Assembly: GCA_963702435.1 (NCBI GenBank)
Contig: CAVPCR010000005.1
Span: 474,688-538,687 of the forward strand
DNA length: 64,000 nucleotides
DNA from: Candidatus Eiseniibacteriota bacterium
GTDB taxonomy: Bacteria > Eisenbacteria > RBG-16-71-46 > CAVPCR01
Reading direction: 5' to 3'
Under the pieces are notes generated by a model. That model was given only the letters and a program-made list of their open reading frames with translations, had not been told where the DNA came from and did no database searches. Position numbers and translations under genes: made by a program. Numbering within the stretch: the first letter of the stretch is position 1; every line of letters begins with the position of its first letter. This document shows, piece after piece, positions 6,561 through 22,970 of this stretch.

Positions 6561-6998
6561 ATGCTCAAGATCCTCTTCCTGTGTACAGGAAACTCCTGCC
6601 GGAGCCAGATGGCGGAGGGCTTCGCCCGCCATCTGCGCGGAGCCGAGATCGATGCGTACTCGGCCGGCACCGCCCCGCACGGGCTCGACCCGCGCGCGGT
6701 CCGGGTCATGGCCGAGGCCGGCATCGACATCGCGGCACAGCGCTCGAAACACGTGGCCGAGCTCGCGAAGATCGCCTTCGACTGGGTCGTCACGGTGTGC
6801 GGGCATGCCGACGAGCAATGCCCGACCTTTCCCGGCTCGACCCGCATCGTGCACGCCGGCTTCGACGACCCGCCGGCGCTCGCCCGCGCCGCAGCGAGCG
6901 AGGAGGAGGCGCTCGCCTCCTACCGGCGGGTGCGCGAGGAGATCCGCGCCTTCATCGAGACCCTGCCGGGATCGCTGGCGTCCCGTTCCTACCGGTAG
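6561..6998 (+). CDS. arsC: Arsenate reductase, LMW-PTPase (thioredoxin-coupled) type
   Basis: MLKILFLCTGNSCRSQMAEG P-loop (CX5R) plus downstream Cys pair CGHADEQCP, as in the Bacillus/Staphylococcus-type ArsC family. Confidence 0.8.
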   Translation: MLKILFLCTGNSCRSQMAEGFARHLRGAEIDAYSAGTAPHGLDPRAVRVMAEAGIDIAAQRSKHVAELAKIAFDWVVTVCGHADEQCPTFPGSTRIVHAGFDDPPALARAAASEEEALASYRRVREEIRAFIETLPGSLASRSYR

Positions 6999-9919
6999 GC
7001 GAAGATCACCGCGTAGATGATCAGCCCGACCAGCGAGCAGGCCGATCGCAGAGCGCGGTGAACCCGAAGATCCGCCAGCTGCGCACGGTCTTCGGGTCGA
7101 GCGGCGGATCGACGAGGTGGCTCTCGAGCGTGCCCGCTGGCCACCAGCTCCGCGTACTCGCGCGGCCGGTCGATCTTGAACTCCTCGAGCGGCACGCGGC
7201 CGGTGAAGATGACCGGGTCCATGGGGAACTTCTCCGGGCGGAAGTGCGTGTTGAAGAAGTGGATGGTGAAGATGAAGCCGACCGCGAGCAGCGCCTCGTC
7301 GCTGTGGATGATGGTGGCCACGTTGAGCAGCCGAGCCCGGCAGGAAGCGGGTGAAGAACTCGGGGAACCAGAGCATGAGCCCGGTCGACGCCGATCATCG
7401 CCACGCCCCAGAAGACCGCGAAGTAGTCGAACTTCTCCCAGTAGGTCCAGCGGCCGTAGTCGGGCCGCGGGCCCCGGCCGAGGAACCACTTGAGCGAGCC
7501 GACGAACTCCCTGCAGGTCGGTCGAGGTTCGGCAGCATGCTGTTCGGGCCGAGCGACGAGCTTCTTCATGCCGCCCGCCTCGCACGCGCTTGCGCCGCAG
7601 CAGGTCCCAGATGTGGAGCCCGAAGTAGGCGAAGGTGATGACCGCGCAGACGCGGTGGATGAAGCCGGCGGTCTCGAAGCCGCCGAAGAGCCGCGCCAGG
7701 ACGCTGCGCCCAGCCGGTGTAGGAGAACTTGAGCGTCATCCCGGTCAGCGCCAGCCCGAGGAAGCTCACGATCACCATCAGGTGGAGCTTGCGTGTAGAA
7801 CGGCGTGAACCGGCGCACGTACGTCTGGCCGGGGCGCTGCGCGTCGGCCTGCTTGAGCTGCCGGCGGTACTGCAGCGAGCGCGGGAGCCAGGCGAGCGTG
7901 TGCAGCCCCGCGAAGGTGAAGCGTCCCGACCAGGAGCCCCGTCATCCCCCAGAAGGTGTAGAAGAGGACCGGGTACTTGCTTCGGGTCGTGGTGCGTGGC
8001 GTGGGTCAGGTAGCCGGCGAAGCGCCGGTTCGAGCCGGGGTGGCACTGCGCGCAGGTCTTCACGATGTTGCTCGCGGCTCAGGTGCGACTTCGGGTTCCA
8101 CGTCGGCAGGATGTCGTGCGCGCCGTGGCAGTCGTAGCACTTGGCGGTCTTCACGTAGCCGAGCTTCGAGACCTTGCCGTGGTAGGTGTCGAAGTAGCTC
8201 TCGGTGATCTCCTCGTGGCAGTCGCCGCACTGCGTCATGATCGTGAGCTTGAAGTCGGTCGCGGTCGGTGCGCTTGATCTCGTGCGCCGAGTGGCAGTCG
8301 CTGCAGTCGGGCAGCTTCTCCTTCGTCTTGGAGACCGCCGGCGAGTGGATGCTGCTCGTCGAACAGCTCGTAGATCCCGCGGTGGCACTGGGCGCAGGTC
8401 TTGGCGACGTTCGCCCGGTTGACGGTCGAGGCCGGATCGCTCGCCGGCAGCTCGCCGTGGGCCGTGTGGCAGTTGGCGCAGGTGGCGGTGACGGTCAGCC
8501 CGCTCTCGAGCAGCCCCTTGCCGTGGATCGACTCGGTGTAGTCTCGACCATCCCGGTCTCGGTGCCCGTGTAGCGGACGCGCCGCCTTCTCTCCCTTGCG
8601 GTGGCACTGGCCGCAGAGGGTCGGGATGTTGCGCGGCGAAGGTCGGCGACTCGGTGTCGCGCCTTGCCCGAGGACGCCGTGGGTGCCGTGGCAGTCCTTG
8701 CAGACCGGGGCGTCGGGGCTGCCCGTCGGCGGCGAGCTTGCCGTGGGTGCTGTCCGGTACTGCTCCACCACCTCGGCGTGGCAGATCGAGCAGTCCACCT
8801 CTCGGCGCACGGTCGCGCAGGGGCGCTCCAGCGACGGCGAGCACTCGGTGTGGCACTGGACGCAGGCCATCCGGGCGTGGCGCGAGTGCGGCCAGCTCGT
8901 CCGCGTCGACGTGGAGCTCGGCGCTCTGGCCATCCCGGCGGTCGACTTGAGGTCGGTCGCGGGCGTGGCAGCTCATGCAGTCCCGGTCGGCCATGCCCTG
9001 CGTGTAGAACACCTTGCGCACCTTGTGCGGCGAGTGGCAGTCGACGCAGGCCGGGATCATGTGGGGCTGCTTCTCCCACAGCTCGCCGCGGATCACCTTG
9101 CGGTGCACGCGCTCGATCTGGGCGTGGCACTTGGTGCAGGTCTTGGCGACCTGTCCGTGCGCGATCGAGGAGCGCGGATCGGTGTGCGGCAGCACGTGGT
9201 GCGCGGTGTGGCAGCTCGTGCAGACCGCGGTGACGATCAGCCCCTTCTTGAACAGCCCCTCGCCGTGGATCGACTCCGAGTAGTTCTCGAGGATGCTGTC
9301 CTGCGGGATCGAGTGCGTGAGCTGGACCGGCGAGCCTTCGCGGTGGCAGCGTGCCGCAGAGGAGCGGGATGTTCATGACGGCGGTCTGGGCGAGCGGGGT
9401 CGGACGGGCGGCGCACGATCGTGCGTCGCCGTGGCAGCTCTTGCAGGTGGGGGCGAGCGGATCGCCGCGCTGCCCGGCCTGACCGTGCAGGCTCTCGTCG
9501 TACTGGGTCTGGATCTCGTCGTGGCAGGTGCCGCAGTCGACCGGCGCGAGCTTCTCCGGGTGCGGCATCTCGACGCCGGCGAGGTCCATGTGGCAGTCGG
9601 TGCAGGCCACCCCCGCATGCGGCGAGGCGAGGAGCGCCGCGGCATCGAACTTGGGCGGCTCGCCGGGGACGCGCCGCCCCTGGCGTCCGGCCACGTGGCA
9701 ATCGACGCAGCCCTCGGCGCCCGGCGGCAAGGCCGCGCTCGGCGTCTGCGCGACGGCCGCGGCGGGACCCACCGCGAGGCGGCCCGTCGAGCCGCGGAGA
9801 TCGGAGATCGAGGGGCCCGCGACCAGAACCGCCACGAGGACAGCAATCCCCGCGGCCGGGAGGATCCAGAACCGCGACCACCCGCGGCTGCGCTTCACAT
9901 CAACCTCGGCGTGTCGCAT
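6989..9919 (-). pseudogene. ~970-aa multiheme cytochrome c (about 19 CXXCH) fused to a cytochrome-b-like membrane domain; broken by at least ~20 frame changes
   Basis: Start MRHAEVDVKRSRGWSRFWILPAAGIAVLV (ATG 9919, SD GAGGTGG). The protein can only be followed by hopping between ORFs 8495..10141, 7942..9195, 8235..8933, 7566..8063, 7021..7818, 6989..7585 and the N-terminus of 5463..7376. One switch is exact: an extra base at 9349 splits a heme motif (tgc ggc acg C tgc cac = CGT-CH). The C-terminal part (..FVGSLKWFLGRGPRPDYGRWTYWEKFDYFAVFWGVAMIG.., ..LLNVATIIHSDEALLAVGFIFTIHFFNTHFRPEKFPMDP..) parallels the b-domain of the intact paralog 9900-11978. Confidence 0.8.
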
Positions 9920-11978
9920 CCTGTTCCACCTCTCGTACCGCCGTGCCGCCCACCCCCGGGTGGTTGCCGCCGTGGCCGTCGCTCGTCGCGCTCCCGGCGC
10001 CGCCGGCAGCGGCCCGGTGCTGATCGTGCTCGGCGGCCCGGTGCTCCCCGTGCCCGCCGTGTCCGCCGTGCCCGCCGTGCTCGGCATGCCCTCCCGCGTG
10101 CACCTTGCCGTAGAGCATCGCGGTGTCGAGCGGATAGACATCGGGATCGAAGATCACCGTGTAGAAGTGCCAGACGAGGATGGCGAGCGAGGCCAGCACC
10201 GCCTCGTAGTAGTGGATGTAGGTCGCCAGATCGGGCATCCAGGCCGGCAGGTTGGCGAGCGTCCAGTTCTTGAAGACGAGGAGCAGGCCGGTGAGCGTCA
10301 TCACCACGCTGCCCCAGACCAGCGCCCAGTACTCGGCCTTCGCCACGTAGCTGAACCCGTGCGGCTCGGGCGCGTGCATCGACGGCACCTTGCCGGTGAA
10401 GAACCCGAGCGCGTGCCCGACGTCCTGGATGCGGAAGGCGAGCCCGACGATGAGCCGCCGCCCCCGCGGCTTCAAGATCACTCGCACCGTGTGCTCGATG
10501 CTGAGGACGACGAAGATGATGGCGAAGAAGCGGTGGAAGTTGCCGCGGAAGGTCTCACCGCCGAGCCACTGGAAAGGCGCCGCCCACCACTCCTTGGGCC
10601 ACTTGATCGCGAAGCCGGAGTAGGCGAGCGCGATGAAGGAGACGAGCAGGAAGACGTGCTCCAGCCGCTCGACCGAGACCCAGCGCTCGTAGCGCCGCGT
10701 CACGCGTTCGCGGGCCAGGTGCCGGCGAAGCTTGCGGAAGAAGTCGAGCGCATGATGGAGGAGCATGCCGCCGATGATGACCGGGATCGCGATCTGGTAG
10801 AAGAGCACGACCCACTGGATGATCGGCACCGACTCCGCCGGGCCGCCGTGCACGGTGAAACCACTGAAGGTGGCTTCCGAGACTCCCGGATGGCACTGGC
10901 CGCAGGTCGTGGGCAGGTTCGCGGTGTTGACCATCGAGCGCGGATCGCTCGAGGGCAGGATGTCGTGCACGCCGTGGCAGCTCGCGCAGTTGGCGACCGT
11001 CGTCTGTCCCGCCTCGGCGGCCAGCCCGTGGTAGCTCTGGCTGTAGCTCTCGACCCGGTTGCCCGGGATCCCGAGCTTCGAGGTGAGCCGCTCGGTGGCA
11101 TGACACCGCGCACAGGTCTCGCTCGAGATCGCCGTCGCGAAGACCGAGGACTTGGGATCGGCGGGGCCGAGGATCGTGTGCTCGCCGTGGCAGTCGGTGC
11201 AGGTGGCTGACTCATCGATCCCGCGGGCGAGCGCCACACCGTGGATGCTCTGGTTGTACGCGGCAGCGATATCACCGTGGCACTTGCTGCAGGTGGCGGC
11301 GATGTTCATGCGGTTGGTCGGCGACTGCGGATTGAGGGGCTTCGAGATGTGGTGCGCCCCATGGCAATCGCTGCAGCTCGCCGCATCGAGATTCCCGCGC
11401 TCGAGGATCGCCCGGCCGTGCACGGTATGCGCATAGCCGGTGCTCGGCATGCTCATGGCGACATCGGGCGGAGTCGCGCTCTCGTGGCAGGTGGCGCACT
11501 GCTTGGGCATGTTCTTCTTGTGCATGAGCGAGCGCTCGTCGCTCGCCGGCAGGAGCGAGTGCACCTCGCCGTGGCACATGGTGCAGGAGAGCGCGCCGGG
11601 TCGCTCCCCGCCATGTCCGTGGTCGCTCGCCCGCACCTCCTTGTCCGCGTCCTCGTGACAGGTCGCGCAGCTCACGACCGGGAGGTCGGGATCGTGCTCG
11701 ACGCCGACCCCCGCATGGCAGTCGACGCAGCTGAACCCGCCGTGCGCCGAGCCGGCAAAGACCGCCGGATCGACCGAGATCGAGATCTCCTGGCCGGCGG
11801 CATTGGTCCCGGTGAGTCCCTCGCTGCCGTGGCAGGCCAGGCAGTCCTCGCTCGTCGGCTGCGCGACCGCGGCGCCGGCGGCGAGGGCCAGGGCGGCGAG
11901 CAACGCGGCCAGCAGGACGGCGCCAGGCGCCGCCCGCCGCCGCGACCCGTTTCCGCTCTTCTCGATCATGCTTCCCAT
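9900..11978 (-). CDS. 11-heme cytochrome c fused to a 5-TM diheme cytochrome-b-like (HydC/FdnI-type) domain; CbcL-like architecture; His-rich C-terminal tail
   Basis: ATG 11978 (MGSMIEK) with an AAGGAG SD, and a signal/anchor LLAALLAALALAAGAAVA. There are 11 CXXCH motifs (CLACH, CVDCH, CATCH, CTMCH, CATCH, CSDCH, CSKCH, CTDCH, CARCH, CASCH, CGQCH). These are followed by 5 hydrophobic helices carrying conserved His (LLHHAL, LEHVF, FHRFF, IEHTV, YIHYYE). The tail is HAGGHAEHGGHGGHGGHGEH. Confidence 0.85.
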   Translation of the reverse strand: MGSMIEKSGNGSRRRAAPGAVLLAALLAALALAAGAAVAQPTSEDCLACHGSEGLTGTNAAGQEISISVDPAVFAGSAHGGFSCVDCHAGVGVEHDPDLPVVSCATCHEDADKEVRASDHGHGGERPGALSCTMCHGEVHSLLPASDERSLMHKKNMPKQCATCHESATPPDVAMSMPSTGYAHTVHGRAILERGNLDAASCSDCHGAHHISKPLNPQSPTNRMNIAATCSKCHGDIAAAYNQSIHGVALARGIDESATCTDCHGEHTILGPADPKSSVFATAISSETCARCHATERLTSKLGIPGNRVESYSQSYHGLAAEAGQTTVANCASCHGVHDILPSSDPRSMVNTANLPTTCGQCHPGVSEATFSGFTVHGGPAESVPIIQWVVLFYQIAIPVIIGGMLLHHALDFFRKLRRHLARERVTRRYERWVSVERLEHVFLLVSFIALAYSGFAIKWPKEWWAAPFQWLGGETFRGNFHRFFAIIFVVLSIEHTVRVILKPRGRRLIVGLAFRIQDVGHALGFFTGKVPSMHAPEPHGFSYVAKAEYWALVWGSVVMTLTGLLLVFKNWTLANLPAWMPDLATYIHYYEAVLASLAILVWHFYTVIFDPDVYPLDTAMLYGKVHAGGHAEHGGHGGHGGHGEHRAAEHDQHRAAAGGAGSATSDGHGGNHPGVGGTAVREVEQDATRRG

Positions 11979-12003: not shown

Positions 12004-13446
12004 TCACTCGGCATAGAGCCGGCTCACGATCTCCGGGTTGACTTCCTCGATCGCCAGGAGATGGTGGCAGTTCGTGCACTCCTGGCTGATGGTCTTGCCG
12101 TCCGAGCTCACGTGCTGCTCGTCGTGACAGCGGAAGCAACCCGGGGCGCTCTCGTGACCGATGTGGTTCGGATAGGTTCCCCAGGTGACCTTCATTTCGG
12201 GGAACACGTTCCGCCCGTAGATGGTCTTGATCGACTCGACGGCCCGCTCCACCTGGGCGGGGTTCTGTCCCGGCTCCGAGTCACGGTAGAAGGCCCGGAT
12301 CTCGGTGTCGATGGTGGCGAAAGCGGTCTTGCGGTCCGGATACTCGGTCGACAGCACGCGCTCCGCCTCGCGGCGGATGAACGGCAGGTTGCGCGGAATG
12401 GTGCCCAGCCAAATGGCGTCGTTGATGGCCTTGGCCAGCGGCTCGAAGGCGTGGGTCGGCCGGTTGTGGCAGTCCATGCAGTCGAGGGAACGCCGTTCGA
12501 CCCCGGGGCGGGCCTTGGGATCGAAGTCGAGCCCCTCCTTGAGATACTCGGTCGTGTTGCCGGCCGGGTCGGTGACGCCGACCCAGTACATCTCGGTGCG
12601 CGTCGAATCGGCGATGTACTCGATCCGGTTGGCGATGTTCATGTGCCAGTGGATGCCCTCGGCAAAGCCCGACTCGAGGCTGCCGCCGCCGACCTTCAGG
12701 AGCAGCATGGTCGTGAGCTCGGTGTTCTCCCGGTCGCTCGCGAAGCTCTTCTTCACCTTGACGCGATCGCCGTGGAACTTGGCCGGCCAGTGGCACTGCT
12801 CGCAGGTCTCGCGCGCGGGGCGCAGGTTGTGCACCGGATTCGGCAGCGGCCGGTGGTACGTATCGAGCGTCACCGCCACCACCTGGCGGAGTCCGGAGAG
12901 CTTCGACTTGACGAACCACCCGGCGCCCGGACCGATGTGGCAGTCCACGCACTCGACGCGGGCGTGCGGCGACGCCTCATAGGCGGTGTACTCGGGGATC
13001 ATCACCTTGTGGCAGACGAGCCCGCAGAACTCGCTCGAGTCCATGTAGTGCACCGCCTGGAACCCGGCCACGCCCAGGATCATGAGGCTGAGCGCGCTCA
13101 TGATGAGGACGGCGTTCAGCCGCCGCCGGTGATCGGGGCGGTTCAGATCGATGATGGCGAAGGGGGCCCTGCCCTGGGCCTCCTTCTGCCGCATGTAGAG
13201 GCGCCGGCCGATGATGATGAGGATGATGCCGAAGACGAAGAGCCCAGGCAGCACCAGGTAGGCCAGGATGCCGATGTACGGGTTGGTCTCGACGCCGATC
13301 AGCTCGACCACGAGGAAGAACAGGAAGAGGACCACCGAGAACATGACCAGGTTCGCCCCGAGGAGCCCCACCGGGTGGCGCGAGGCGTGGCTCATCAGGT
13401 CGCGGATGCTCCCGATCGCGGTCTTCACCGGTCTGAGCGGACTCAT
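12004..13446 (-). CDS. Membrane-anchored 6-heme NapC/NirT-like cytochrome c (ImcH-like architecture)
   Basis: 480 aa with three N-terminal hydrophobic helices, then CGLVCH directly after the last helix (the NapC/NirT hallmark). Further motifs are CVDCH, CEQCH, CMDCH, CFRCH and CTNCH. Confidence 0.8.
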   Translation of the reverse strand: MSPLRPVKTAIGSIRDLMSHASRHPVGLLGANLVMFSVVLFLFFLVVELIGVETNPYIGILAYLVLPGLFVFGIILIIIGRRLYMRQKEAQGRAPFAIIDLNRPDHRRRLNAVLIMSALSLMILGVAGFQAVHYMDSSEFCGLVCHKVMIPEYTAYEASPHARVECVDCHIGPGAGWFVKSKLSGLRQVVAVTLDTYHRPLPNPVHNLRPARETCEQCHWPAKFHGDRVKVKKSFASDRENTELTTMLLLKVGGGSLESGFAEGIHWHMNIANRIEYIADSTRTEMYWVGVTDPAGNTTEYLKEGLDFDPKARPGVERRSLDCMDCHNRPTHAFEPLAKAINDAIWLGTIPRNLPFIRREAERVLSTEYPDRKTAFATIDTEIRAFYRDSEPGQNPAQVERAVESIKTIYGRNVFPEMKVTWGTYPNHIGHESAPGCFRCHDEQHVSSDGKTISQECTNCHHLLAIEEVNPEIVSRLYAE

Positions 13447-13635: not shown

Positions 13636-15300
13636 TCAATCACGCAGGATGTACGCCCGGCGTGGCATCTTCCCCGGATTCAGCGCCAGCGTGCTCTGCT
13701 GGAGAAGCTGGATCGCGTAGGTCGTGTTGTGCACGCCGTGCGATCCGTCGTATTCGACGAAGAAGTAATTGTATCCCGCCTCGCGCTGATCGCGGGTCGT
13801 GATGTTGGTATCCCCGACCGCGACCGAGAATTCCTCGGCGGTGACCAGGGCCAGGCTGTCCTCAGGGCTCGCGCTGGCGTCGATGATCGCCGTCTTGAGG
13901 ATCCCGAGGAGGCCGTGGATCTCGTCCTGCACGCCCTGGATCTGGCCGCTTCCGTCGAAGTCCTCCTTGGCCAGGATCTGGTCGAAGTCGGTGATCGCGC
14001 CGTGACACTCGGCGCACGCCTCGACGGTCGGGAGGAAGCCGTGTCCGGTGTAGACCACGTCCCCCTCGTGTCCGTGCGTGTGGCAGTGCACGCAGCCCTC
14101 GCGCACCGCGAGGTGCCGGCTCGAGGTCCACGGGAACCCCGGCATGAGACCCTCGTAGGCGCCGGTACCGGCGAGCATGTCGCCCTGATTCGAGTGATGC
14201 GGACCGAAGTGCTCGCTGCCGTTCGCGAGCTGGCCCTCGATGCTGGTCGGCGTCCGCCGGCCGTTGTGGCAGGCCATGCAGAGCCGGCCGGCGCCCGCCT
14301 CCGGTACCACGCTCCCGTCAGGGAGGACGACGTCGGTGGCCGCGGCGTTGCGCAGGTTGGCGAGGTTGTCGTTCCCGTGCGGGTCGTGGCACACGGCGCA
14401 GGTGATGGCCAGCGTGTCCTCGACCGCAGGCGGGTTCACGAAGCCGCCGGGGTTGTCCAGATACGTGCCGGCGTAGACGCCGTTGTGGCACTTGGCGCAG
14501 CCGGCGCTCTCCGCCGCCTCCACGATCACGCTGTTGTGCGGCGACGAACCCCACTCGTCGAAGGTCGGATGGTGCGGCCCGTTGTGGCAGGAACCGCACA
14601 ACCCGGCCGCCGTCACCACGTCCACCGAGCCGGGATCGGGGTTCGGATGCGAGCTCCCCGGACCGTGGCAGTTCTCGCATTGCACGCCGTAGAGGCGGGC
14701 GACTGCCATCTCGTCGTACCCGCCGTTGTTGAGCGCCGGATCGGCATTGACCGCCTTCGCGCCGACGGTGTGGCAGGGTAAGCAGACGTTGTTCCGCCCG
14801 TTGCCGATCGCATTCAGGGTCTCCCAGGCCCCCTGATGCCCCGTCTGCTCCCACGCATCGTACACATCGTCATGGCAGCCGTTGCAGTAGCTCGCCCCGC
14901 GATAGTACGGGCTGGCCGCCGGCACATAGGTGTCGACCCCGAGCGTCCTGGTCCCGACTCCCGCGTCCTGGTTGTTCGTCACGGTGCAAGCGATGTCGTA
15001 GAGCCCCGAGGCCTCGGGCGCCGTCCACTGGGTGGTGTCATTCGACGTGGTCGCGAACGAGCCCCCGCTCGCCGCCCAGCTGTAGGTCAAGGGCGCCGTG
15101 GACCCGCTCTCGACGTCGGCCTTGGCCACGAGCGTGACCGTGCCCCCACCCGCCACCGAATCGGCCGTTGAGGAGACCGTGACCGTGATCGCCGGTGCCG
15201 GCACCACGATCTCGTCATCGCCCTCGCAGCCGCCCAGCAGGGCCATGGCCGCAAGCGCGGCCAGCGCGAGATGAATGAATGGACGAACCGATCGCATCAT
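13636..15300 (-). CDS. 9-heme cytochrome c lipoprotein with an N-terminal Ig-like (PKD/Big-like) domain
   Basis: Signal plus lipobox MMRSVRPFIHLALAALAAMALLGGC. A ~100-aa beta-rich domain follows (TVTVSSTADSVAGGGTVTLVAKA...YDIACTVTNNQ). There are 9 CXXCH motifs (CNGCH, CLPCH, CENCH, CGSCH, CAKCH, CAVCH, CMACH, CVHCH, CAECH). SD GGAGGGAGG precedes the ATG. Confidence 0.85.
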   Translation of the reverse strand: MMRSVRPFIHLALAALAAMALLGGCEGDDEIVVPAPAITVTVSSTADSVAGGGTVTLVAKADVESGSTAPLTYSWAASGGSFATTSNDTTQWTAPEASGLYDIACTVTNNQDAGVGTRTLGVDTYVPAASPYYRGASYCNGCHDDVYDAWEQTGHQGAWETLNAIGNGRNNVCLPCHTVGAKAVNADPALNNGGYDEMAVARLYGVQCENCHGPGSSHPNPDPGSVDVVTAAGLCGSCHNGPHHPTFDEWGSSPHNSVIVEAAESAGCAKCHNGVYAGTYLDNPGGFVNPPAVEDTLAITCAVCHDPHGNDNLANLRNAAATDVVLPDGSVVPEAGAGRLCMACHNGRRTPTSIEGQLANGSEHFGPHHSNQGDMLAGTGAYEGLMPGFPWTSSRHLAVREGCVHCHTHGHEGDVVYTGHGFLPTVEACAECHGAITDFDQILAKEDFDGSGQIQGVQDEIHGLLGILKTAIIDASASPEDSLALVTAEEFSVAVGDTNITTRDQREAGYNYFFVEYDGSHGVHNTTYAIQLLQQSTLALNPGKMPRRAYILRD

Positions 15301-15497: not shown

Positions 15498-15636
15498 TTT
15501 ACAGAATACCACGCCGGGCCCCATGGTCCGCCGGATCGGATCACTGCCCCGGCTCTCCAGACAAGATCGCGGAATGGATTCAACACTACCGACAAGATGT
15601 CAAGACCGACGGTCGGAAAGTCCCGACTTGTCCACA

Positions 15637-15892: not shown

Positions 15893-17227
15893 ATGAAGCT
15901 CTCCGCGCGCATCCCCCCGCTCGCGGCCATCGCCCTCACCGTCGTAGTCGCAGCTCTGGCGGCGCTGCCGGCCAGCGGGCAGACCTTTCACGGACGCCTG
16001 ACCACCTCGTTCTACCGCTATGACCGGGCGCCGACCGATTCGACCGATCACGACTACGTCCGGGCCTACGCGCTCGGCATCTTCCACCTCGAAGGGCTCG
16101 CCGACCGGCGCTTCTCGCTGCACACCTACCTGAACGGCCAGCAAGATCTCGCCACGGTGAACCACGACGAATTCGACTACCGCGTGCTGAACCTCTACGC
16201 GCAGTGGAAGGACAAGCCGCAGGGGTACGAGCTCCGCGGCGGGCGCATGCGCATCTTCGCCGGCGTCGCCAACGTGGCCCTCGACGGCGGATACGGGAGC
16301 TACCGCTTCCGCGATCTGGCGACCCTCGAGGCCTTCGTCGGGGTGCAGGCGCCGCTCACCGGGGCGTTCAAGGTCGCCGACTGGGACAACAGCTCCTACG
16401 GCGGCCGGCTCACCTTGCACACGCCCGCGAACCTGACGACCGCCGTGAGCTTCGCCCGCCAGAACCGCGAGCCGTTCACCTATGGCGAGCCCGGCGAGTT
16501 CACCGGACGCGAGCTCGAACTGCCGGCGGACCAGGAAGAGCTCTACGGCGCGAACGCCTCCTGGCGCTTCGAGCCGGGATCGACGGTGTACGGGCGCGTC
16601 GAGTGGGATCGGCTGCAGTGGCGCCTCAAGTACGTCGGCGGCGCGCTCAACATGGCGCGCCCCGGAGAGAAGTGGAGCACCGATCTCGAGTACTTCCACC
16701 GGGCGCCCTCGCTCTACGCCAACTCGCTCCTCTCGGTCTTCAACCAGGGCGACATCGATGAGATCGGAGTCCGGGCGAGCTACCTCGTGACGCCCGCGGT
16801 TCGCGCCTTCGGCAACGTGAACCTCACCTACCTCGACGGCGACTCGGGCCAGCGCTTCGGGGTCGGCGCCGGGCAGGGGCCCTGGAGCGTCTCCTACACG
16901 CACCGCATGGGCTACACCGGCGACTCCGACGCGGTGATCGGGTCCTACCAGCGCGAGATCACCGCGGAGGCCGGCGTCCGCGCCCAGATCGGCTACACGA
17001 GCTACGAGCTCTACGCCGATCAGGAGGAGCGCAACGACTCGTTCGTCCTCGGCCTCGGCGGTGAGCTCCGGCCGCTGCGCACGCTGGCCTTCGACCTGGA
17101 GATCCAGAACCTGAGTCAGGAACTGAGCACGCAGCCGGCATTCGCCGGCTACGAACATGACTGGCGCGGGCACGTTCGCATCACCTACTGGTTCTTCACC
17201 GGGCGCGGTCTCACGGAGGTCTTCTGA
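15893..17227 (+). CDS. Putative outer-membrane beta-barrel (porin-like) protein of the cytochrome operon
   Basis: ATG 15893 with a GGGAGGAAGG SD, and signal peptide MKLSARIPPLAAIALTVVVAALAALPASGQ. The 444-aa protein is rich in alternating hydrophobic/polar strands (VSFARQN, ASWRFE, VYGRVEW, VRASYLV, VNLTYLD, WSVSYTH, RAQIGYTSYELY, LAFDLEIQNL, HVRITYWFF) and ends in ...EVF. Its stop overlaps the next start (TGATG). No family is recognised. Confidence 0.6.
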   Translation: MKLSARIPPLAAIALTVVVAALAALPASGQTFHGRLTTSFYRYDRAPTDSTDHDYVRAYALGIFHLEGLADRRFSLHTYLNGQQDLATVNHDEFDYRVLNLYAQWKDKPQGYELRGGRMRIFAGVANVALDGGYGSYRFRDLATLEAFVGVQAPLTGAFKVADWDNSSYGGRLTLHTPANLTTAVSFARQNREPFTYGEPGEFTGRELELPADQEELYGANASWRFEPGSTVYGRVEWDRLQWRLKYVGGALNMARPGEKWSTDLEYFHRAPSLYANSLLSVFNQGDIDEIGVRASYLVTPAVRAFGNVNLTYLDGDSGQRFGVGAGQGPWSVSYTHRMGYTGDSDAVIGSYQREITAEAGVRAQIGYTSYELYADQEERNDSFVLGLGGELRPLRTLAFDLEIQNLSQELSTQPAFAGYEHDWRGHVRITYWFFTGRGLTEVF

Positions 17228-18483
17228 TGGGACTCGGTGGCCGGATCCAATCGCGCCGCGGTCTGCGGATCGGTCTCCTCGTGGCCGGCGCGCTCATCCT
17301 CACGGCCGGCGCGGTCGCCGCGGCCCGCTACCGGGCGGCCGGGAGCTGGGCGAGCCCACAGGATGAAAGCGCCCTCATCAACTTCTCCCACCAGAAGCAC
17401 GCGGCCATCGGCACCGCCTGTCAGGAATGCCACGGCGGCATCGAGGCGAGCACGAAAGCCGCGGACGACTTCACGCCGCGCATGAAGACCTGCTACGCGT
17501 GCCACGACGAGAACTCGACCGAGTGCTCGTTCTGCCACAAGGAGCCGGGCCCGGAGTACACGGCCTTCGCCCCGGCCGAGCGCGAGGTCCTCTTCAATCA
17601 CAAGCTCCACGTCGAGAAGGGGCTAACCTGCGACCACTGCCATCGCGGCGTCGCCGCGGTCGACCACGCCGGTGCCGCGCAGATGCCGATGATGGCCGAC
17701 TGCACGACCTGCCACGACGGGGCGCAGGCGCCGGCCAACTGCGAGATCTGCCACTCGAACCTGAGCGACCTGTGGCCGAGCACGCATACCGATGAGTGGA
17801 TGCACCGCCATCAGAGCTTCACGAGCGACGACGCGAAGGACGATTGCGCGGCGTGCCACGGCGCCCGCTCCGCCGGGATCACCGACTGCCAGGAGTGCCA
17901 CGAGGGTGAGGTGCTGGCGCGCTCGGGCACGAAGTCCGCCGATCACTTCGCGCCCTACGATCCAAACGCCGCGCGCCGCGGCAAGCCGCTCGTGCTCGAG
18001 CGGGTGCACGCCCTCGACTACGCCTACACCCACGGCCAGGATGCCCGCGGCAAGGAGACCGATTGCCAGTCCTGCCACGAGCCGGCCACCTTCTGCGCCG
18101 AGTGCCATCAGGGGCAGGGCGGAATCCCCCAGGCCAGGCCGCTCTGGCACGGCGGGGCCGACTGGGGCGCCGTTTCCGGCGGCGTGGGTACGGGCGGCGG
18201 CCGGCACGGCGAGATGGCCCGGCGCGACATCGAGAACTGCGCCGCGTGCCATGACGTGCAGGGCCAGGATCCGGTCTGCCTCAGCTGCCACATGGACCGG
18301 CAGCCCGGCGTCGGCAACGATCCGCGCACGCACGAGTCGGGCTTCATGCGCGACGTGAAGGGGCCGTGGCACTACGACCTGAACGAGACCTGCTTCGCTT
18401 GCCACCAGCCTTCGCCGTTCTCGGCGCCCGGTTTCTGCACGTACTGCCACGGGCCACAAGAGCAAGGGAAGGAGGGGAGGTAG
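17227..18483 (+). CDS. 14-heme periplasmic cytochrome c (c3/c7-type repeats)
   Basis: 418 aa with an N-terminal anchor/signal LRIGLLVAGALILTAGAVAAA. There are 14 CXXCH motifs (CQECH, CYACH, CSFCH, CDHCH, CTTCH, CEICH, CAACH, CQECH, CQSCH, CAECH, CAACH, CLSCH, CFACH, CTYCH). Confidence 0.9.
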   Translation: MGLGGRIQSRRGLRIGLLVAGALILTAGAVAAARYRAAGSWASPQDESALINFSHQKHAAIGTACQECHGGIEASTKAADDFTPRMKTCYACHDENSTECSFCHKEPGPEYTAFAPAEREVLFNHKLHVEKGLTCDHCHRGVAAVDHAGAAQMPMMADCTTCHDGAQAPANCEICHSNLSDLWPSTHTDEWMHRHQSFTSDDAKDDCAACHGARSAGITDCQECHEGEVLARSGTKSADHFAPYDPNAARRGKPLVLERVHALDYAYTHGQDARGKETDCQSCHEPATFCAECHQGQGGIPQARPLWHGGADWGAVSGGVGTGGGRHGEMARRDIENCAACHDVQGQDPVCLSCHMDRQPGVGNDPRTHESGFMRDVKGPWHYDLNETCFACHQPSPFSAPGFCTYCHGPQEQGKEGR

Positions 18484-18485
18484 CC

Positions 18486-18881
18486 ATGGAGCGACGTCGT
18501 GGGTTCCGGGGTACTACCTCGGTGATCGCCCTCGCCGCGATCGCCCTGGCCGCGGCCTGCGCCGAGCGGCGCGATCTGCCGGCCTCGCCGGCCCCTCCCG
18601 ACCGCGTGACCTATGAGGCCGACGTCAAATCGATCTTCGACGCGAGATGCATCTCGTGTCACAGCGGAGCCAGCCCGGCTGGGCAATACGACATGACGAC
18701 TCTCGACGGGATCCAGGGCAACGGGCTCGACGGCACGCCGAACGCGATCGCCGGCGACCCGCAAAGCCTGCTTATCGTCGAGTCGCAGCCGGGTGGTAGC
18801 ATGAACTCGTTTTACTCCAGTCCGGACGAGGTGGCGCTGGTCGAGCGCTGGGTAGTGGAGGACAGCCTGGCTGCGCGCTAA
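18486..18881 (+). CDS. Monoheme cytochrome c lipoprotein (planctomycete-type cytochrome c domain-like)
   Basis: ATG 18486 lies 2 nt after the upstream stop, behind a GGAAGGAGGGGAGG SD. Lipobox IALAAAC. Single motif VKSIFDARCISCHSG. Confidence 0.7.
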   Translation: MERRRGFRGTTSVIALAAIALAAACAERRDLPASPAPPDRVTYEADVKSIFDARCISCHSGASPAGQYDMTTLDGIQGNGLDGTPNAIAGDPQSLLIVESQPGGSMNSFYSSPDEVALVERWVVEDSLAAR

Positions 18882-18944: not shown

Positions 18945-19550
18945 GTGAGAGCAACCTACCTGTTGGTTCTCGGACTCGTCGCATTCGTGGTCCTGGCCGC
19001 CTACTGGTTCACGCCGACCCCGGCGGTCGGCGCCGACGAGCCGGCCAAGGCCCCCGCGGCAGCGACCGGCAAGTTCGACTACGTCGGTTCGGCCAAGTGT
19101 GGGATGTGCCACAAGAGCGACGCCAAGGGCAACCAGCTCAAGGTGTGGCAGGCGAGCCCGCATGCCAAGGCGTATGCGACGCTCCAGGGCGAAGCGGCCA
19201 AGAAGATCGCCACGGAGAAGAAGCTGGCCAAGCCGGCCCACGAGTCGCCCGAGTGCCTGAAGTGCCATGCGACCGCGGCGATGACGGCCGCTCCGGCCAC
19301 CGCCAAGGTCAAGATGGACGAGGGCGTGAGCTGCGAGTCCTGCCACGGCCCGGGCAGCGCCTACCAGGCGATGAACGTCATGAAGGCGATCACGGCCGGC
19401 ACCCAGGACGTGAAGGCGGTCGGCTTCGTCAAGGCCGACGCGACGACCTGCACCAAGTGCCACAACGATCAGAGCCCGACCTTCAAGGGCTTCAAGTACG
19501 AAGAGTACGTGAAGAAGATCGCCCACCCGGATCCGACCCAGAAGAAGTAG
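18945..19550 (+). CDS. Tetraheme cytochrome c (c554-like family)
   Basis: GTG start behind an AAGGAGGAGGAAG SD, and signal LLVLGLVAFVVLAAYWF. Motifs CGMCH, CLKCH, CESCH and CTKCH. The context GSAKCGMCH...W..S.HA..Y is typical of the cytochrome c554/multiheme family. Confidence 0.8.
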   Translation: MRATYLLVLGLVAFVVLAAYWFTPTPAVGADEPAKAPAAATGKFDYVGSAKCGMCHKSDAKGNQLKVWQASPHAKAYATLQGEAAKKIATEKKLAKPAHESPECLKCHATAAMTAAPATAKVKMDEGVSCESCHGPGSAYQAMNVMKAITAGTQDVKAVGFVKADATTCTKCHNDQSPTFKGFKYEEYVKKIAHPDPTQKK

Positions 19551-19606: not shown

Positions 19607-20956
19607 TTGAGAGCGCTGTGGAAGACCCTTAACTCGACCAGGTTCGTCATCATCCTGCTCATTCTCCTGGCGGTGGCGTCGATCGGCGGCATCGTGCTCG
19701 GCGAGAAGTTTCCCGTCGGGTTCTACGGGGCCGAGGAGCACTACCGCGCCAAGTACGGAGATCGCACCTTCGAGACGCTGGCCGCGCTGGGGGTCTTCCA
19801 GCCGTTCCGGTCGTTCTGGTTTCACACGCTCCTCACCCTGCTCTCGGCCAGCCTCGTGGCGTGCAGCGTGAGCCGTCTCCGCGTGACCGTGAAGACCGCC
19901 CTCGGCCTTCACTTCCGGCAGTCACCGGGGGAGCTCATGAGCTTGAAGCACCACGCGCGGCTGGCTCTCGCGGACGGTGCGAGCGCCGATGCCGAGAAGA
20001 TCGGCCGGGCGCTCCGCCGGCGCGGCTTCGCGGTGCGGCGAGCGCCGGGCTCCGAAAGCACGGCGCTCGCCGCATCCCGCGGCGGCCTGTCCCGGACCGG
20101 GCCCTATCTCACGCATGTGGGTCTCCTTCTCCTCATCTTCGGCGGCATGGCGAGCGGCATCCTCGGCCGCTCCGAGTGGGTGTGGCTCGAGCCCGGCGAG
20201 ACCTGGTCCGGGATGGGGAAGGACTTCTCGATCAAGCTCGCCCGCTTCGAGGTGCCGGCGAACGCGCGCGGCGAGATCATGCAGTTCAACTCGACGGTCG
20301 AGGTGACCGCCCCCGGCCGCGAGAGCTTCACCCAGACGATCGCGGTCAACCACCCGCTCCGCCTCGACGGAGTGAGCTTCTACCAGTCGTCGTACAAGAC
20401 CTTGCCCGGGAAGGTTGCGAGCCTGGATCTGAAGATCGGGGACCGCGTGGTGAGTGTCCCCTTCGACGCGCAGACCACGCTTCCTGACGGCCGCACGATC
20501 GCCGTCGACCAGTTCGTGGCCGACTTCCGCATGACGGCGGACGGCATCGTCTCGGCCTCCGATGAGCTCAGGAATCCCGCCGTGCGCGTCGTCCTCTACG
20601 AGGGCGGCGAGGCGGCCGGGGCCCGCTGGCTCTTTCTCCATCATCCGGAGTTCGCTCACGCCGGATCCGGCCTCGGCGATCTGAGCCTGGCCGGCGCCAC
20701 GCCCGTCTATTCAACCGGGCTCCAGGCCCGCACGAGCCCCGGGAGCCCCCCCATCTGGGCCGGCTTCGTGGTCGCCACCCTCGGTCTCATCTTCTCCTTC
20801 TATCTGACGCACCGGAAGGTGTGGGTCGTCCTCGAGCCCGGCGCCGTCTACCTGGCCGGTCTCACGAGCGGCAATCGCGACGCCTTCCGCCGCGAGTTCG
20901 CGGCGATCGAGAACGCGATCGCGGCGACCATCGAGCAGCAGAGGAAAGCAGCATGA
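19607..20956 (+). CDS. resB: Cytochrome c biogenesis protein ResB/Ccs1 (System II)
   Basis: TTG start after GGAAAGGGAG. The N-terminus LRALWKTLNSTRFVIILLILLAVASIGGIV...FQPFRSFWFHTLLTLLSASLVACS is characteristic of ResB, followed by a large periplasmic domain and a C-terminal TM. The upstream part of the 619-aa ORF overlaps the previous gene out of frame. Confidence 0.8.
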   Translation: MRALWKTLNSTRFVIILLILLAVASIGGIVLGEKFPVGFYGAEEHYRAKYGDRTFETLAALGVFQPFRSFWFHTLLTLLSASLVACSVSRLRVTVKTALGLHFRQSPGELMSLKHHARLALADGASADAEKIGRALRRRGFAVRRAPGSESTALAASRGGLSRTGPYLTHVGLLLLIFGGMASGILGRSEWVWLEPGETWSGMGKDFSIKLARFEVPANARGEIMQFNSTVEVTAPGRESFTQTIAVNHPLRLDGVSFYQSSYKTLPGKVASLDLKIGDRVVSVPFDAQTTLPDGRTIAVDQFVADFRMTADGIVSASDELRNPAVRVVLYEGGEAAGARWLFLHHPEFAHAGSGLGDLSLAGATPVYSTGLQARTSPGSPPIWAGFVVATLGLIFSFYLTHRKVWVVLEPGAVYLAGLTSGNRDAFRREFAAIENAIAATIEQQRKAA

Positions 20957-21762
20957 CGCCCGACGTTCATCTGTTCACCGTGAGCCTCTGGCTCTACCTG
21001 GCCGCTTTCGTCCTGTTCACGGCCTACTTCGCGCTCCGCCACGTGAGCCTCGGCCGGCTCGCTGCCGTCGTGCTCTTCGCCGGCGGCGGTTTCCAGACCG
21101 CGGGCCTCGGCCTGCGCTGGAACCTGGCCGGGCACATCCCGCTCTCGAACATGTTCGAGTACGCGACGGCGATGTCCTGGATGGCCGTGGTGTCATTCGG
21201 GCTGCTCCTCTGGCGCTACCGGAAGCTCGTGGTCGGCGTCTTCGTGGCGCCGCTCGTCTTCGCGCTCGTCGTCGCCGCCTCGATGCTGCCGAAGGACATC
21301 ACGCAGCAGCTCGTGCCGGCTCTCCAGAGCTACTGGCTCACGATCCACGTCTCGCTCGCCGCCCTCGGCGAGGGCGCCTTCGCCGTCGCCTTCGCGGTGA
21401 GCGTCATGTACCTCGTGACCGCGAGGCTCGGCGGCGGCGGCAAACGACGGCTGCCTTCTCCGGACCTGCTCGACGAGATCAACTACCGCGCGATCGCCAT
21501 CGGGTACCCGCTGTTCACGATCGGCGCCCTCTTCGCCGGCGCCATCTGGGCGCACAACGCCTGGGGCGCCTTCTGGAGCTGGGATCCGAAGGAAGTCGGG
21601 TCGCTCATCATCTGGCTCTTCTACACCGGCTACCTGCACGCCCGCCTGCAGCGCGACTGGCGCGGCACGCGCGCCGCCTGGATGTCGATCATCGGCTTCC
21701 TGATGACGGTGCTCTCCTTCGTCGGCAACATCTTCCTGGGCGGCAATCACGCCTACGGTTAG
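20953..21762 (+). CDS. ccsA: Cytochrome c assembly protein CcsA/ResC (System II heme lyase subunit)
   Basis: ATGA overlap with resB. Polytopic membrane protein with the W-rich heme-handling motif WAHNAWGAFWSWDPKE and conserved His residues. Confidence 0.85.
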   Translation: MTPDVHLFTVSLWLYLAAFVLFTAYFALRHVSLGRLAAVVLFAGGGFQTAGLGLRWNLAGHIPLSNMFEYATAMSWMAVVSFGLLLWRYRKLVVGVFVAPLVFALVVAASMLPKDITQQLVPALQSYWLTIHVSLAALGEGAFAVAFAVSVMYLVTARLGGGGKRRLPSPDLLDEINYRAIAIGYPLFTIGALFAGAIWAHNAWGAFWSWDPKEVGSLIIWLFYTGYLHARLQRDWRGTRAAWMSIIGFLMTVLSFVGNIFLGGNHAYG

Positions 21763-21851
21763 AGCCGGGCGCGCGCGGGCCGGCCGGGATGCCGGCCCGC
21801 TCCTCTCGGCAGCTCGAGCCGGCGCTGCGAACCCGGCCCTGGAGATCGGAC

Positions 21852-22970
21852 ATGGATCGCGCTCGTTTGCGCCGCCCGCGCCGCGCGAGACTCGCTCTCG
21901 CCGCGCGCGGGCTTCTTCTGGTCGCCGCCGTTCTCGCGGCAGCGGGCGCCGGCTGCCAGCGCTCGGCCCGGGAGAAGGCGCCGGCCACGGTGAACTGGGA
22001 AGCGGATAACCCGGTCGTTCCCCTGCCCACGCCCCCGCTCGGCGTCGAGGCCGACTTCTCGGCGCTCGAGTTCGTGACGCCGGAGAAGGTGCGACTCGGG
22101 AGGTGGCTCTTCTACGATCCGCGGCTGTCGAGCGACGGCCGGGTGTCGTGCGCCACCTGCCACCGCCCGGAGAACGCCTTCTCCGAGCCGACCCCCCATT
22201 CGACGGGGGTCGGCGGGCAGATCGGAACGCGGAAGTCTCCCACCTTCGTCAACGGAGCCTGGCCCCTCTACGACCACTTCTTCTGGGACGGGCGCGCGCG
22301 CTCCCTCATCGAACAGGCGCAAGGACCGATGGCGAACCCGGCCGAGATGGGCAGCACGCACGAGGTCGTGGTCTCGACGGTGAGCGGGATCGCCGGCTAC
22401 CGGCGGATGTTCGCCGCGGTCTACAGCGACGAGACGATCGACATCGATCGCATCGCGGAATCGCTTGCCGCCTACGAGGCGACCCGCCTCTCCGGCAACT
22501 CGCCCTGGGACCGCTACGAGAACGGCGATCGCTCGGCGCTCTCACCCGCGGCGAAGCTCGGGGCCGAGCTCTTCTACGGCCGGGCCGAGTGCAGCCAGTG
22601 TCACGTCGGCTGGAACTTCACCGATTCCAAGTTCCACAATCTCGGGATCGGCTGGGATCAGGCGGCCGGAGTCTTCGCCGACTCGGGACGCGTCCGCGTG
22701 AGCGGCTTGCCCGAGGACACGGGCGCATTCAAGACGCCCACGCTCCGCGAGGTGACGAAGCACGCCCCCTACATGCACGACGGGTCGGTCGGCACGCTCG
22801 CCGAGACGGTCGAGCACTACAACCGCGGTGGGACGCCGAACCCGCACCTGAGCCCGAAGGTCCGCCCGCTCGGTCTCTCTCCGCGCGAGGTGGAGGCCCT
22901 CGTCGCCTTCATGCAGGCGCTCGACGGCGAGGGATATCTGGATACGCCGCCCGGGTCGTTCCCGCAGTAA
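21852..22970 (+). CDS. Diheme cytochrome c peroxidase (CCP/MauG family), lipoprotein
   Basis: Lipobox AAAGAGC. Motifs CATCHRPENAFSEP and CSQCHVGWNFTD, plus FKTPTLREVTKHAPYMHDGS, are hallmarks of bacterial CCP. Confidence 0.9.
   Translation: MDRARLRRPRRARLALAARGLLLVAAVLAAAGAGCQRSAREKAPATVNWEADNPVVPLPTPPLGVEADFSALEFVTPEKVRLGRWLFYDPRLSSDGRVSCATCHRPENAFSEPTPHSTGVGGQIGTRKSPTFVNGAWPLYDHFFWDGRARSLIEQAQGPMANPAEMGSTHEVVVSTVSGIAGYRRMFAAVYSDETIDIDRIAESLAAYEATRLSGNSPWDRYENGDRSALSPAAKLGAELFYGRAECSQCHVGWNFTDSKFHNLGIGWDQAAGVFADSGRVRVSGLPEDTGAFKTPTLREVTKHAPYMHDGSVGTLAETVEHYNRGGTPNPHLSPKVRPLGLSPREVEALVAFMQALDGEGYLDTPPGSFPQ

Follow-up and report, generated by a model that had tools for sequence, protein, structure and literature searches.

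A heme-rich gene cluster in an Eisenbacteria genome predicted to encode a porin-cytochrome conduit of the Ignavibacterium kind

Results

Divergent operons for a predicted outer-membrane barrel and multiheme cytochromes

The stretch of DNA analysed here, a 64-kb window on contig CAVPCR010000005.1 of a Candidatus Eiseniibacteriota (Eisenbacteria) assembly (GCA_963702435.1), carries divergent operons in which the gene for a predicted outer-membrane beta-barrel is directly followed by that for a 14-heme cytochrome and is surrounded by further cytochrome genes. As argued below, this cluster probably encodes a porin-cytochrome (Pcc) pathway for extracellular electron transfer (EET). A six-frame count found 67 CXXCH heme-binding motifs in the window, 64 of them between 8 and 24 kb, and recounting them gene by gene reproduced the tally of about 66 given by an earlier, sequence-only reading of this DNA. 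The features of the cluster are as follows:

6989-9919, minus strand: CbcL-like gene 1; 18 intact CXXCH over three frames plus a 19th split by an insertion or deletion (indel); b-type membrane domain
9900-11978, minus strand: CbcL-like gene 2; 11 CXXCH, signal peptide, b561/FdnI-like domain with 5 transmembrane helices, His-rich C-terminal tail
12004-13446, minus strand: ImcH-like inner-membrane quinol oxidoreductase, 480 aa; 3 transmembrane helices, 5 CXXCH and 1 CX3CH (CGLVCH)
13636-15300, minus strand: OcwA-like nonaheme lipoprotein, candidate surface terminal oxidoreductase; 9 CXXCH, lipobox LGGC
15301-15892: divergent intergenic spacer of 592 bp with candidate shared control sites
15893-17227, plus strand: predicted outer-membrane beta-barrel, 444 aa; signal peptide, 22-24 strands, C-terminal Phe
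17227-18483, plus strand: 14-heme c7-repeat cytochrome, 418 aa, candidate periplasmic wire threaded through the barrel; 14 CXXCH
18486-18881, plus strand: monoheme lipoprotein, lipobox AAAC; 1 CXXCH, PF07635 (PSCyt1) at 25.2 bits (cut-off 22)
18945-19550, plus strand: cytochrome c554-like tetraheme protein, candidate periplasmic shuttle; 4 CXXCH, PF13435 at E = 4.3e-17
19607-20956, plus strand: ResB (CcsB-type System II cytochrome c maturation); PF05140 at E = 1.4e-73
20953-21762, plus strand: CcsA/CcsB System II heme-handling subunit; TIGR03144 at 224.7 bits (cut-off 187.6) and a PF01578 match
21852-22970, plus strand: di-heme protein of the cytochrome c peroxidase/MauG family (CCP_MauG); PF03150 at E = 3.3e-53, 2 CXXCH

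A short predicted barrel and the coupled gene for a 14-heme cytochrome

The 444-aa product of 15893-17227 matched nothing in the Pfam and NCBIfam scans that we ran and is therefore left unnamed by standard annotation. It had been put forward as a candidate barrel with a signal peptide and an aromatic C-terminal end, and both are present, the last residue being Phe. An AlphaFold2 (AF2) model, for which the alignment input comprised 17 homologs, starts with the helix of the signal peptide and continues in 24 beta elements (predicted local distance difference test score, pLDDT, 79.4; predicted TM-score, pTM, 0.72); because two of the 24 elements are short, we estimate the number of strands at 22-24. 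Foldseek searches of the PDB with this model returned 352 matches at E <= 0.001, the 50 listed all being outer-membrane barrels, and the best TM-scores were obtained with the 24-strand ushers PapC (0.55) and FimD (0.51), followed by the 18-strand AlgE (about 0.42) and 16-strand porins (about 0.32). The protein is thus predicted from its model to form a large outer-membrane beta-barrel, and the prospect that it might be a non-barrel protein, or belong to an unrelated characterised family, was not borne out by any match.

Kinship with the MtrB/PioB barrels was considered and rejected, as there is no Pfam match, the barrel profile retrieved none of the PDB sequences (MtrB included) and MtrB lies outside the best 50 Foldseek matches. 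The worry that the protein is too short in comparison with MtrB/PioB proved unfounded: short length is usual for Geobacter-type Pcc barrels, which have 18-22 predicted strands and are much smaller than MtrB. An exhaustive profile search recovered 392 cluster representatives of the barrel family at E <= 0.001, nearly all of 400-460 aa; none of the 392 carries an informative name, and cluster look-up returned a lineage for Zixibacteria only. A word-indexed search with a wide barrel profile (A2) added three further proteins, none informatively named, and a few family members show weak matches to generic outer-membrane protein models.

The stop codon of the barrel gene overlaps the start of the 14-heme gene (TGATG), as noted previously, and from this overlap the 14-heme gene is read as translationally coupled to the barrel gene. 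Its product begins with a signal or anchor helix, and all 14 CXXCH motifs, together with about 12 extra His residues, are kept among 46 homologs. When its profile was compared with the PDB, the closest solved relative was Geobacter GSU1996 (3OV0, E = 4.3e-30), followed by ActA, c7/PpcA, MtrF/MtrC and MtrA (6r2q_A, E = 1.5e-5, a local and weak match), with NrfA at E of about 0.01-0.02. The best matches are thus electron-transfer cytochromes, and the 14-heme protein does not group with catalytic enzymes, an outcome that would have spoken against a conduit. Relatives between 384 and 432 aa long are known from Ignavibacteriaceae (there 402-405 aa, no motif being lost), KSB1, Gemmatimonadota and Bacteroidota, and homologs are also named from metagenome-assembled genomes (MAGs) labelled "FCB group". 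A fold search with the AF2 model of the 14-heme protein gave marginal ActA matches, which we do not use as evidence.

The barrel/14-heme pair is conserved across lineages

We compared the window with seven further loci (L002 from an Eisenbacteria MAG, L003, L006, L007, L009, L010 from Ignavibacteriaceae and L011 from Gemmatimonadota). In all eight, a barrel-family gene is directly followed by a 12-14-heme gene, over a range of barrel identity from about 21-22% to 100%; profile scores were E <= 1e-127 for the barrel genes and E <= 1e-109 for the 12-14-heme genes, and the two genes often overlap. Barrels of L002, L003/L004 and a further locus, PBfrrd4q, share 51-68% identity with that of the window, and these loci repeat a five-gene core in which the 9-heme lipoprotein gene is divergent from the barrel, 14-heme, 1-heme and 4-heme genes. 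The barrels of L006, L007, L009, L010 and L011 are at 21-27% identity, and that of the Ignavibacteriaceae MAG (L010, 6719-7990) aligns with the window barrel over its full length (27% identity, E = 8e-36). A homolog of the c554-like tetraheme protein (183-222 aa) is found near the barrel in seven of the eight loci. A scan of species genomes returned a single relative, the Eisenbacteria MAG MFD09779.bin.1.77.

A pair of this kind is on record. IALB_1838 of Ignavibacterium album is a 400-aa, 14-heme periplasmic cytochrome of the Pcc type (Shi, Fredrickson & Zachara 2014, PMC4245776), the periplasmic cytochromes of Pcc systems having 5-14 hemes, and 'OmbB-like' PCCs have been described in Ignavibacteria MAGs (PMC7399161). 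The barrel/14-heme pair of the window is the Ignavibacterium-type Pcc recognised in 2014, which the sequence-only reading had missed. Since the window barrel is homologous to the Ignavibacteriaceae Pcc barrel and the 14-heme cytochrome matches as well, the cluster belongs to a recognised, experimentally uncharacterised Pcc type of the FCB group.

The genes around the pair vary. In the distant lineages (Ignavibacteria, Gemmatimonadota and others) the surface partner is a downstream cytochrome of about 280-300 aa with six CXXCH and one atypical motif, whose lipobox is recognisable in L006 and L010, and the Eisenbacteria clade has a downstream monoheme lipoprotein and a divergent 9-heme PKD lipoprotein as surface partners. 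The outer cytochrome has thus been replaced non-orthologously between lineages. Inner-membrane modules are likewise exchanged: L008 has a CbcL- and ImcH-like pair, L003, L007 and L009 have NrfD with a 4Fe-4S protein (Fer4), and L009 and PBfrrd4q have Rieske/cytochrome b. The swapped modules are located as follows:

L003, 15303-17779: swapped inner-membrane module
L007, 11432-13432: swapped inner-membrane module
L009, 1924-5664: swapped inner-membrane module
PBfrrd4q, 3153-4830: swapped inner-membrane module

L003 in addition carries a NrfA/NrfH pair at 1933-3926. Geobacter conduits likewise keep the barrel and the periplasmic cytochrome, their outer lipoproteins being replaceable (PMC6148476).

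The surface candidates: an OcwA-like nonaheme lipoprotein and a monoheme lipoprotein

Profile comparison with the PDB identified OcwA of Thermincola potens (6I5B, E = 5.2e-13) as the closest solved relative of the 9-heme lipoprotein. The two align collinearly, starting at the first heme and reaching the C-terminal helix, with segments 129-156, 149-240, 138-316 and 505-545 in order, and the 9-heme protein has a c554-like N-terminal module (PF13435); by these alignments, it is a remote homolog of OcwA. Weak matches were also obtained with c554 (E = 3e-4) and HAO (E = 0.03). OcwA (TherJR_2595) acts at the cell surface of Thermincola as a terminal reductase for iron oxides and electrodes; it belongs to a wider NrfA/c554 superfamily, a membership that the sequence-only reading overlooked, reduces nitrite (kcat 1 per min) and both reduces and oxidises hydroxylamine. 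A grouping of the 9-heme protein with HAO-type enzymes, which would have argued for catalysis, was not observed, as OcwA is nearest and the HAO match is far weaker. In addition, none of the cluster proteins contains a CXXCK motif, and the PF02335, NrfA, HAO and OTR models had no match in the Pfam and NCBIfam scans.

The protein had been described as a lipoprotein with an Ig-like domain. Its lipobox (LGGC) stands, and the PKD/Ig-like match, at E = 0.008, is a weak one that does not reach the Pfam cut-off. Orthologs retain the lipobox, and in L002, L003 and PBfrrd4q their genes are divergent to the barrel operon. Behind the lipobox Cys lies an acidic run, EGDDE in the window protein and EGDDE, EDDDD or GDEDA across the orthologs, which we take to resemble the surface-lipoprotein export signal of Bacteroidota. 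In the Ignavibacteriaceae MAG (L010, 3955-5973), a 672-aa 9-heme cytochrome encoded beside the homologous barrel module has a Por_Secre_tail/FlgD_ig domain for sorting by the type IX secretion system (T9SS) instead of a lipobox, which implies export to the cell surface. From the lipobox, the conserved acidic run and this T9SS-tailed analogue we infer that the 9-heme lipoprotein lies at the cell surface, and it appears that lineages of the FCB group place the outer cytochrome there by different export routes.

The monoheme lipoprotein (18486-18881) is common to L002, L003 and PBfrrd4q. It has no acidic run behind its lipobox Cys, and a regular-expression search for the lipobox in its orthologs found it only in L003, with L002 retaining the Cys. 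A PccH-like identity was considered and not adopted, the sole match being a sub-threshold stretch of 24 residues at the heme site.

Inner-membrane quinol oxidoreductase candidates

The 480-aa protein at 12004-13446 has hydrophobic segments at residues 34-52, 60-78 and 110-128, a CGLVCH motif just past the third of them and CXXCH motifs at 166, 215, 323, 437 and 457, a pattern that is repeated in the L002 and L003 orthologs. It matches PF03264 over residues 111-198 (38.3 bits, cut-off 24.1) and NrfH (2J7A_C) over residues 108-233 (E = 9e-4). The published signature of ImcH is three transmembrane helices and a CX3CH followed by five CXXCH (PMC6295460), and the same order of elements in the window protein bears out, at the level of signature, the proposal that this NapC/NirT-like protein with three transmembrane helices is ImcH-like.

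Two fusions of a multiheme domain to a five-helix, His-bearing b-type domain had been assigned to the CbcL type. With 11 and 19 motifs, respectively, both conform to the published architecture of an N-terminal multiheme c domain (3-23 CX2CH) and a C-terminal HydC/FdnI-like di-heme b domain (PMC6295460). The b-type domain encoded by 9900-11978 matches PF01292 (35.8 bits, cut-off 30.1) and, at E = 7.6e-10 and below the cut-off of that model, TIGR01583; it has five transmembrane helices, and five His residues are invariant across paralogs and orthologs. Past the fifth helix, the 11-heme protein ends in a His-rich tail (HAGGHAEHGGHGGHGGHGEH...HDQH; about 10010-10100, minus strand) that is predicted to be cytoplasmic, the tail of the L002 counterpart being much shorter.

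The 19-heme gene is frame-broken and under purifying selection

The gene at 6989-9919 had been credited with about 19 motifs after frame repair. The count holds, and the open reading frame (ORF) is not intact, as about 20 single-base corrections are required. Frame tracing located about 20-22 shifts, compared with 0-2 in the intact neighbours; most are corrected by removal of a surplus base, and the indel is often a C after a codon-final G. The 19th motif (CGTCH) is restored by dropping one surplus base near 9349, where the L002 ortholog reads CGRCH. The paralog can be aligned through the changes of frame, as can the L002 ortholog, and no in-frame stops are found once the indels are skipped. 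The L002 ortholog (1038-3929) is also frame-broken, at other positions, into pieces of 520, 311 and 72 aa. Substitution rates at the three codon positions are 0.162/0.137/0.322 between the two broken orthologs, as against 0.208/0.169/0.361 for the intact neighbouring paralog, and this third-position bias indicates purifying selection on the 19-heme gene and rules out an old pseudogene. The remaining ten genes of the cluster are intact.

Frame errors also occur elsewhere in the window. A P-type cation ATPase gene (1899-4877, plus strand) is split into ORFs of 609 and 382 aa; a -1 shift near 3600 and a +1 shift near 3767 enclose its canonical GLSDPPRPE motif, which reads in a third frame. These compensating errors point to local indel error in assembly or consensus. 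The indels of the 19-heme gene are probably consensus errors of a long-read assembly as well, possibly at a strain-variable locus.

The divergent spacer

The 592-bp spacer contains GACA-N3-TGTC palindromes at 15591-15601 and 15682-15692 and a near-copy at about 15651-15661. There are two exact matches to GACANNNTGTC in the 64-kb window, both in the spacer, with 0.69 expected per 64 kb, and L002 has three GACA-N3-TGTC copies at aligned positions 9694, 9753 and 9786. These palindromes are candidate control sites, or an operator, shared by the divergent operons. An AT-rich palindrome (GTAAGATATTGT / ACAATATTTTAC) at 15476-15502, embedded in DNA of 70% GC, may serve the divergent operons as a site for a promoter or a regulator. 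Neither a sigma-70 consensus promoter nor an intrinsic terminator was found in the spacer.

Maturation genes and genomic neighbourhood

The statement that resB/ccsA and a peroxidase gene are embedded in the plus-strand operon agrees with their Pfam and NCBIfam assignments. ResB most likely starts at the TTG at 19607, which has GGGAG upstream, and not at 19550. The peroxidase (21852-22970), which is kept in L002, has a Cys closing its signal sequence and may be a lipoprotein. The label "island" given to the cluster is descriptive and no more, as signs of horizontal acquisition were not found: GC content is 0.655-0.71 within the cluster and about 0.70 outside. An acquired island was accordingly rejected, there being no compositional deviation, tRNA or integrase, and the right flank being syntenic with L002. 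No Rfam family matched anywhere in the 64-kb window.

In both Eisenbacteria genomes the cluster is flanked by a gene (24466-26667, minus strand, in the window; 17648-19801 in L002) for a protein of about 720-730 aa that has DsbH-like thioredoxin (DUF255) domains and may provide thiol reduction for System II cytochrome maturation. Behind the DUF255 gene of the window lie two tandem genes for YceI-like proteins (26668-27510 and 27595-28434).

The secreted proteins of this genome had been said to carry FlgD-type tails, and FlgD Ig-like C-terminal domains are indeed present on three other proteins of the window, all large and secreted (41863-44352, plus strand; 44504-46627 and 46628-48760, minus strand). 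One of them contains 12 FG-GAP repeats; the other two, of 707 and 710 aa, are paralogs encoded in tandem that have no other Pfam domain. Such tails are consistent with a T9SS-type secretion background. Further along, two proteins of about 1,100 aa that combine Ser/Thr kinase, AAA/NB-ARC and TPR domains in a STAND-like manner (51283-54624 and 56826-60212, minus strand) are encoded on either side of an unannotated ORF of 606 aa (54862-56682).

Discussion

A probable route from menaquinol to the cell surface

A Geobacter-type outer-membrane conduit is defined by a periplasmic multiheme cytochrome, an integral outer-membrane beta protein and one or more outer-membrane redox lipoproteins (PMC6148476). 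The cluster encodes a 14-heme cytochrome, a predicted beta-barrel and predicted lipoproteins with nine and one heme motifs, in clustered and co-inherited genes. The earlier proposal of a porin-cytochrome module is thus supported, as all three defining elements are present and conserved together. We put the probability that the cluster encodes a Pcc-type EET pathway of the Ignavibacterium album kind at roughly three in four.

In such a pathway, menaquinol would be oxidised at the inner membrane by the ImcH-like protein and the two CbcL-like c/b fusions, which, as in Geobacter, might serve acceptors of different redox potential. Electrons would then be handed to carriers in the periplasm (the tetraheme c554-like protein, the di-heme CCP-type protein and possibly the monoheme lipoprotein) and on to the 14-heme cytochrome, which would sit inside the 22-24-strand barrel as MtrA sits in MtrB. 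They would leave the cell via the OcwA-like nonaheme surface lipoprotein towards Fe(III) or Mn(IV) oxides, humics or partner cells, and the embedded ResB and CcsA would meet the heavy demand for heme attachment. Complex formation, surface exposure, coupling to quinol and outward flow are all inferred from the genes, and it is the ImcH-like and OcwA-like components that lead us to favour the outward direction.

Several points weigh against this pathway or parts of it. The direction of flow cannot be read from sequence, CbcL-type proteins occurring in Fe reducers and Fe oxidisers alike. Homology of the barrel to OmbB rests on published statements, based on BLAST and hidden Markov models, about Ignavibacteria. 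Of the three inner-membrane genes, the assembly contains one in frame-broken form. The AF2 model of the 14-heme cytochrome is poor (pLDDT 63.6, with a low-confidence C-terminal half) and lends no support to an elongated, MtrA-like shape. The surface location of the 9-heme protein applies a rule from Bacteroidota to another phylum of the FCB group, and the slow activity of OcwA, a member of the NrfA/c554 superfamily, on nitrite and hydroxylamine leaves room for a catalytic role of this protein.

The same apparatus might also run inward, as PioAB and MtoAB do. Its donors would then be Fe(II), reduced humics, a syntrophic partner or a cathode, and the electrons would end up in the quinone pool or in periplasmic reductases. 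Porin-cytochrome conduits are bidirectional in principle, the CbcL/MtrH/MtoC family is shared by Fe(III) reducers and Fe(II) oxidisers (PMC6295460), and Fe oxidation potential of the Cyc2 type has been proposed for Eisenbacteria MAGs (PMC9769843). Sinks for such electrons could be provided by the embedded cytochrome c peroxidase in the periplasm or, in L003, by the NrfA/NrfH nitrite reductase pair that adjoins the cluster. However, ImcH homologs are known to date from Fe(III) reducers alone (PMC6295460), OcwA, the nearest characterised relative of the surface partner, is a terminal reductase, and the oxidising conduits PioAB and MtoAB usually have no outer cytochrome, whereas this cluster has one. 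We therefore judge electron uptake improbable, although a serious alternative to outward flow.

Less probable still is respiration of a soluble substrate, with the OcwA-like protein as a periplasmic reductase or oxidase (of nitrite, hydroxylamine, sulfite or polysulfide) and the barrel as a porin for substrate or product. This role draws on the structural relationship of OcwA to NrfA and c554 and on its action on nitrite and hydroxylamine, as well as on the weak c554 and HAO matches of the 9-heme protein, and a lipid anchor by itself is no proof of surface exposure. Yet the constant partner of the barrel, over about 22-68% identity, is the 14-heme c7-repeat cytochrome and not the 9-heme protein, the proteins of the window show neither a CXXCK motif nor a match to the NrfA, HAO or OTR models, and nitrite turnover by OcwA is very slow. 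Moreover, a short-loop barrel of 22-24 strands, as modelled, would be far larger than a porin for small anions requires, and the Ignavibacteriaceae 9-heme counterpart is T9SS-tailed and therefore extracellular. Decay of the locus to a non-functional state in its host, which the roughly 20 single-base indels in 6989-9919 and the likewise broken L002 ortholog might suggest, is scarcely credible, given ten intact genes, the third-position signature of purifying selection, the lack of in-frame stops after indel skipping and the compensating frame errors in the P-type ATPase gene, which indicate assembly or consensus error.

Implications for Eisenbacteria and the FCB group

To our knowledge, no member of the Eisenbacteria has been brought into culture, and next to nothing has been reported on how these bacteria respire. 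The literature that we searched attributes no such conduit to this phylum and mentions only Cyc2 homologs. If a complete and conserved route leads from the inner membrane to the surface, as favoured above, Eisenbacteria in soils are predicted to respire with acceptors that are insoluble or lie outside the cell, or to trade electrons with minerals or partner cells. The barrel/14-heme family is large, with 392 barrel representatives and at least 297 partner cytochromes, and it spans MAGs labelled Eisenbacteria, Ignavibacteriaceae, Gemmatimonadota, Zixibacteria, KSB1 and Bacteroidota. We found no biochemical characterisation of it in the literature, and the profile of the pair could be used as a marker of EET potential in FCB-group genomes.

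More tentatively, and with some doubt, we suggest that the Eisenbacteria conduit could be a distinct FCB-type variant, in which a lipid-anchored OcwA-type reductase is exported by way of its acidic signal and docks on a barrel threaded by the 14-heme wire. If so, the path across the outer membrane would comprise about 23 hemes, the uncultured soil phylum Eisenbacteria would be a metal- or humic-respiring lineage, and diderm and monoderm EET systems would share a terminal module. As far as the literature searched goes, characterisation of the OcwA-type family is confined to Gram-positive cell walls.

Comparison with known systems

With MtrCAB of Shewanella, PioAB and MtoAB, the proposed conduit would share its mechanism, a barrel-threaded cytochrome that contacts a surface cytochrome. 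The parts differ: the MtrB/PioB barrel has about 700 aa and 26-28 strands, compared with 444 aa in the window, neither the window barrel nor its family matches PF11854, and MtrA is a decaheme protein whose match to the 14-heme cytochrome is, as described above, local and weak.

The likeness to OmbB-OmaB-OmcB and to ExtABCD/ExtEFG of Geobacter sulfurreducens lies in the three-part logic, the gene clustering and the order of barrel, then periplasmic cytochrome. The Geobacter barrels, like that of the window, are small in comparison with MtrB, with 18-22 predicted strands where the AF2 model of the window barrel suggests 22-24. The periplasmic partner in the window has c7-type repeats like Geobacter GSU1996 and 14 hemes, as opposed to eight in OmaB and 12 in ExtA/ExtG, and the outer cytochrome is OcwA-like in the window and OmcB-like in Geobacter. 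The Geobacter conduits are themselves mutually non-homologous (PMC6148476), and complex formation and electron transfer across a membrane have been addressed for the Geobacter Pcc by purification and proteoliposome assays.

OcwA (6I5B) has nine CXXCH motifs and a c554-like N-terminal module, as does the 9-heme protein of the window, at low identity. Two of its hemes are penta-coordinated, with the distal His residues H281/H282 and H380/H381. OcwA is unlipidated and comes from a Gram-positive organism, whereas the window protein has, in addition, a lipobox, an acidic export-like run and a PKD-like domain, and its gene adjoins that for an outer-membrane barrel.

At the inner membrane, the window genes share signature and architecture with Geobacter ImcH (GSU3259) and CbcL (GSU0274), with which they were compared via published descriptions. 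ImcH and CbcL of Geobacter are encoded at separate loci, whereas the ImcH-like and CbcL-like genes of the window are adjacent, in one operon with the gene for the surface cytochrome, and the CbcL-like genes are two tandem paralogs. The b domain of CbcL has six predicted transmembrane helices in Geobacter (PMC6295460), as opposed to five in the window.

The Pcc of Ignavibacterium album (IALB_1837/1838 and porin), again compared by description, resembles the window in having a short barrel directly followed by a 14-heme cytochrome of about 400 aa. The difference is on the outside: the outer partner in Ignavibacteria-type loci has six CXXCH and an atypical motif, whereas the Eisenbacteria clade combines a monoheme protein with a divergent, OcwA-like 9-heme PKD lipoprotein.

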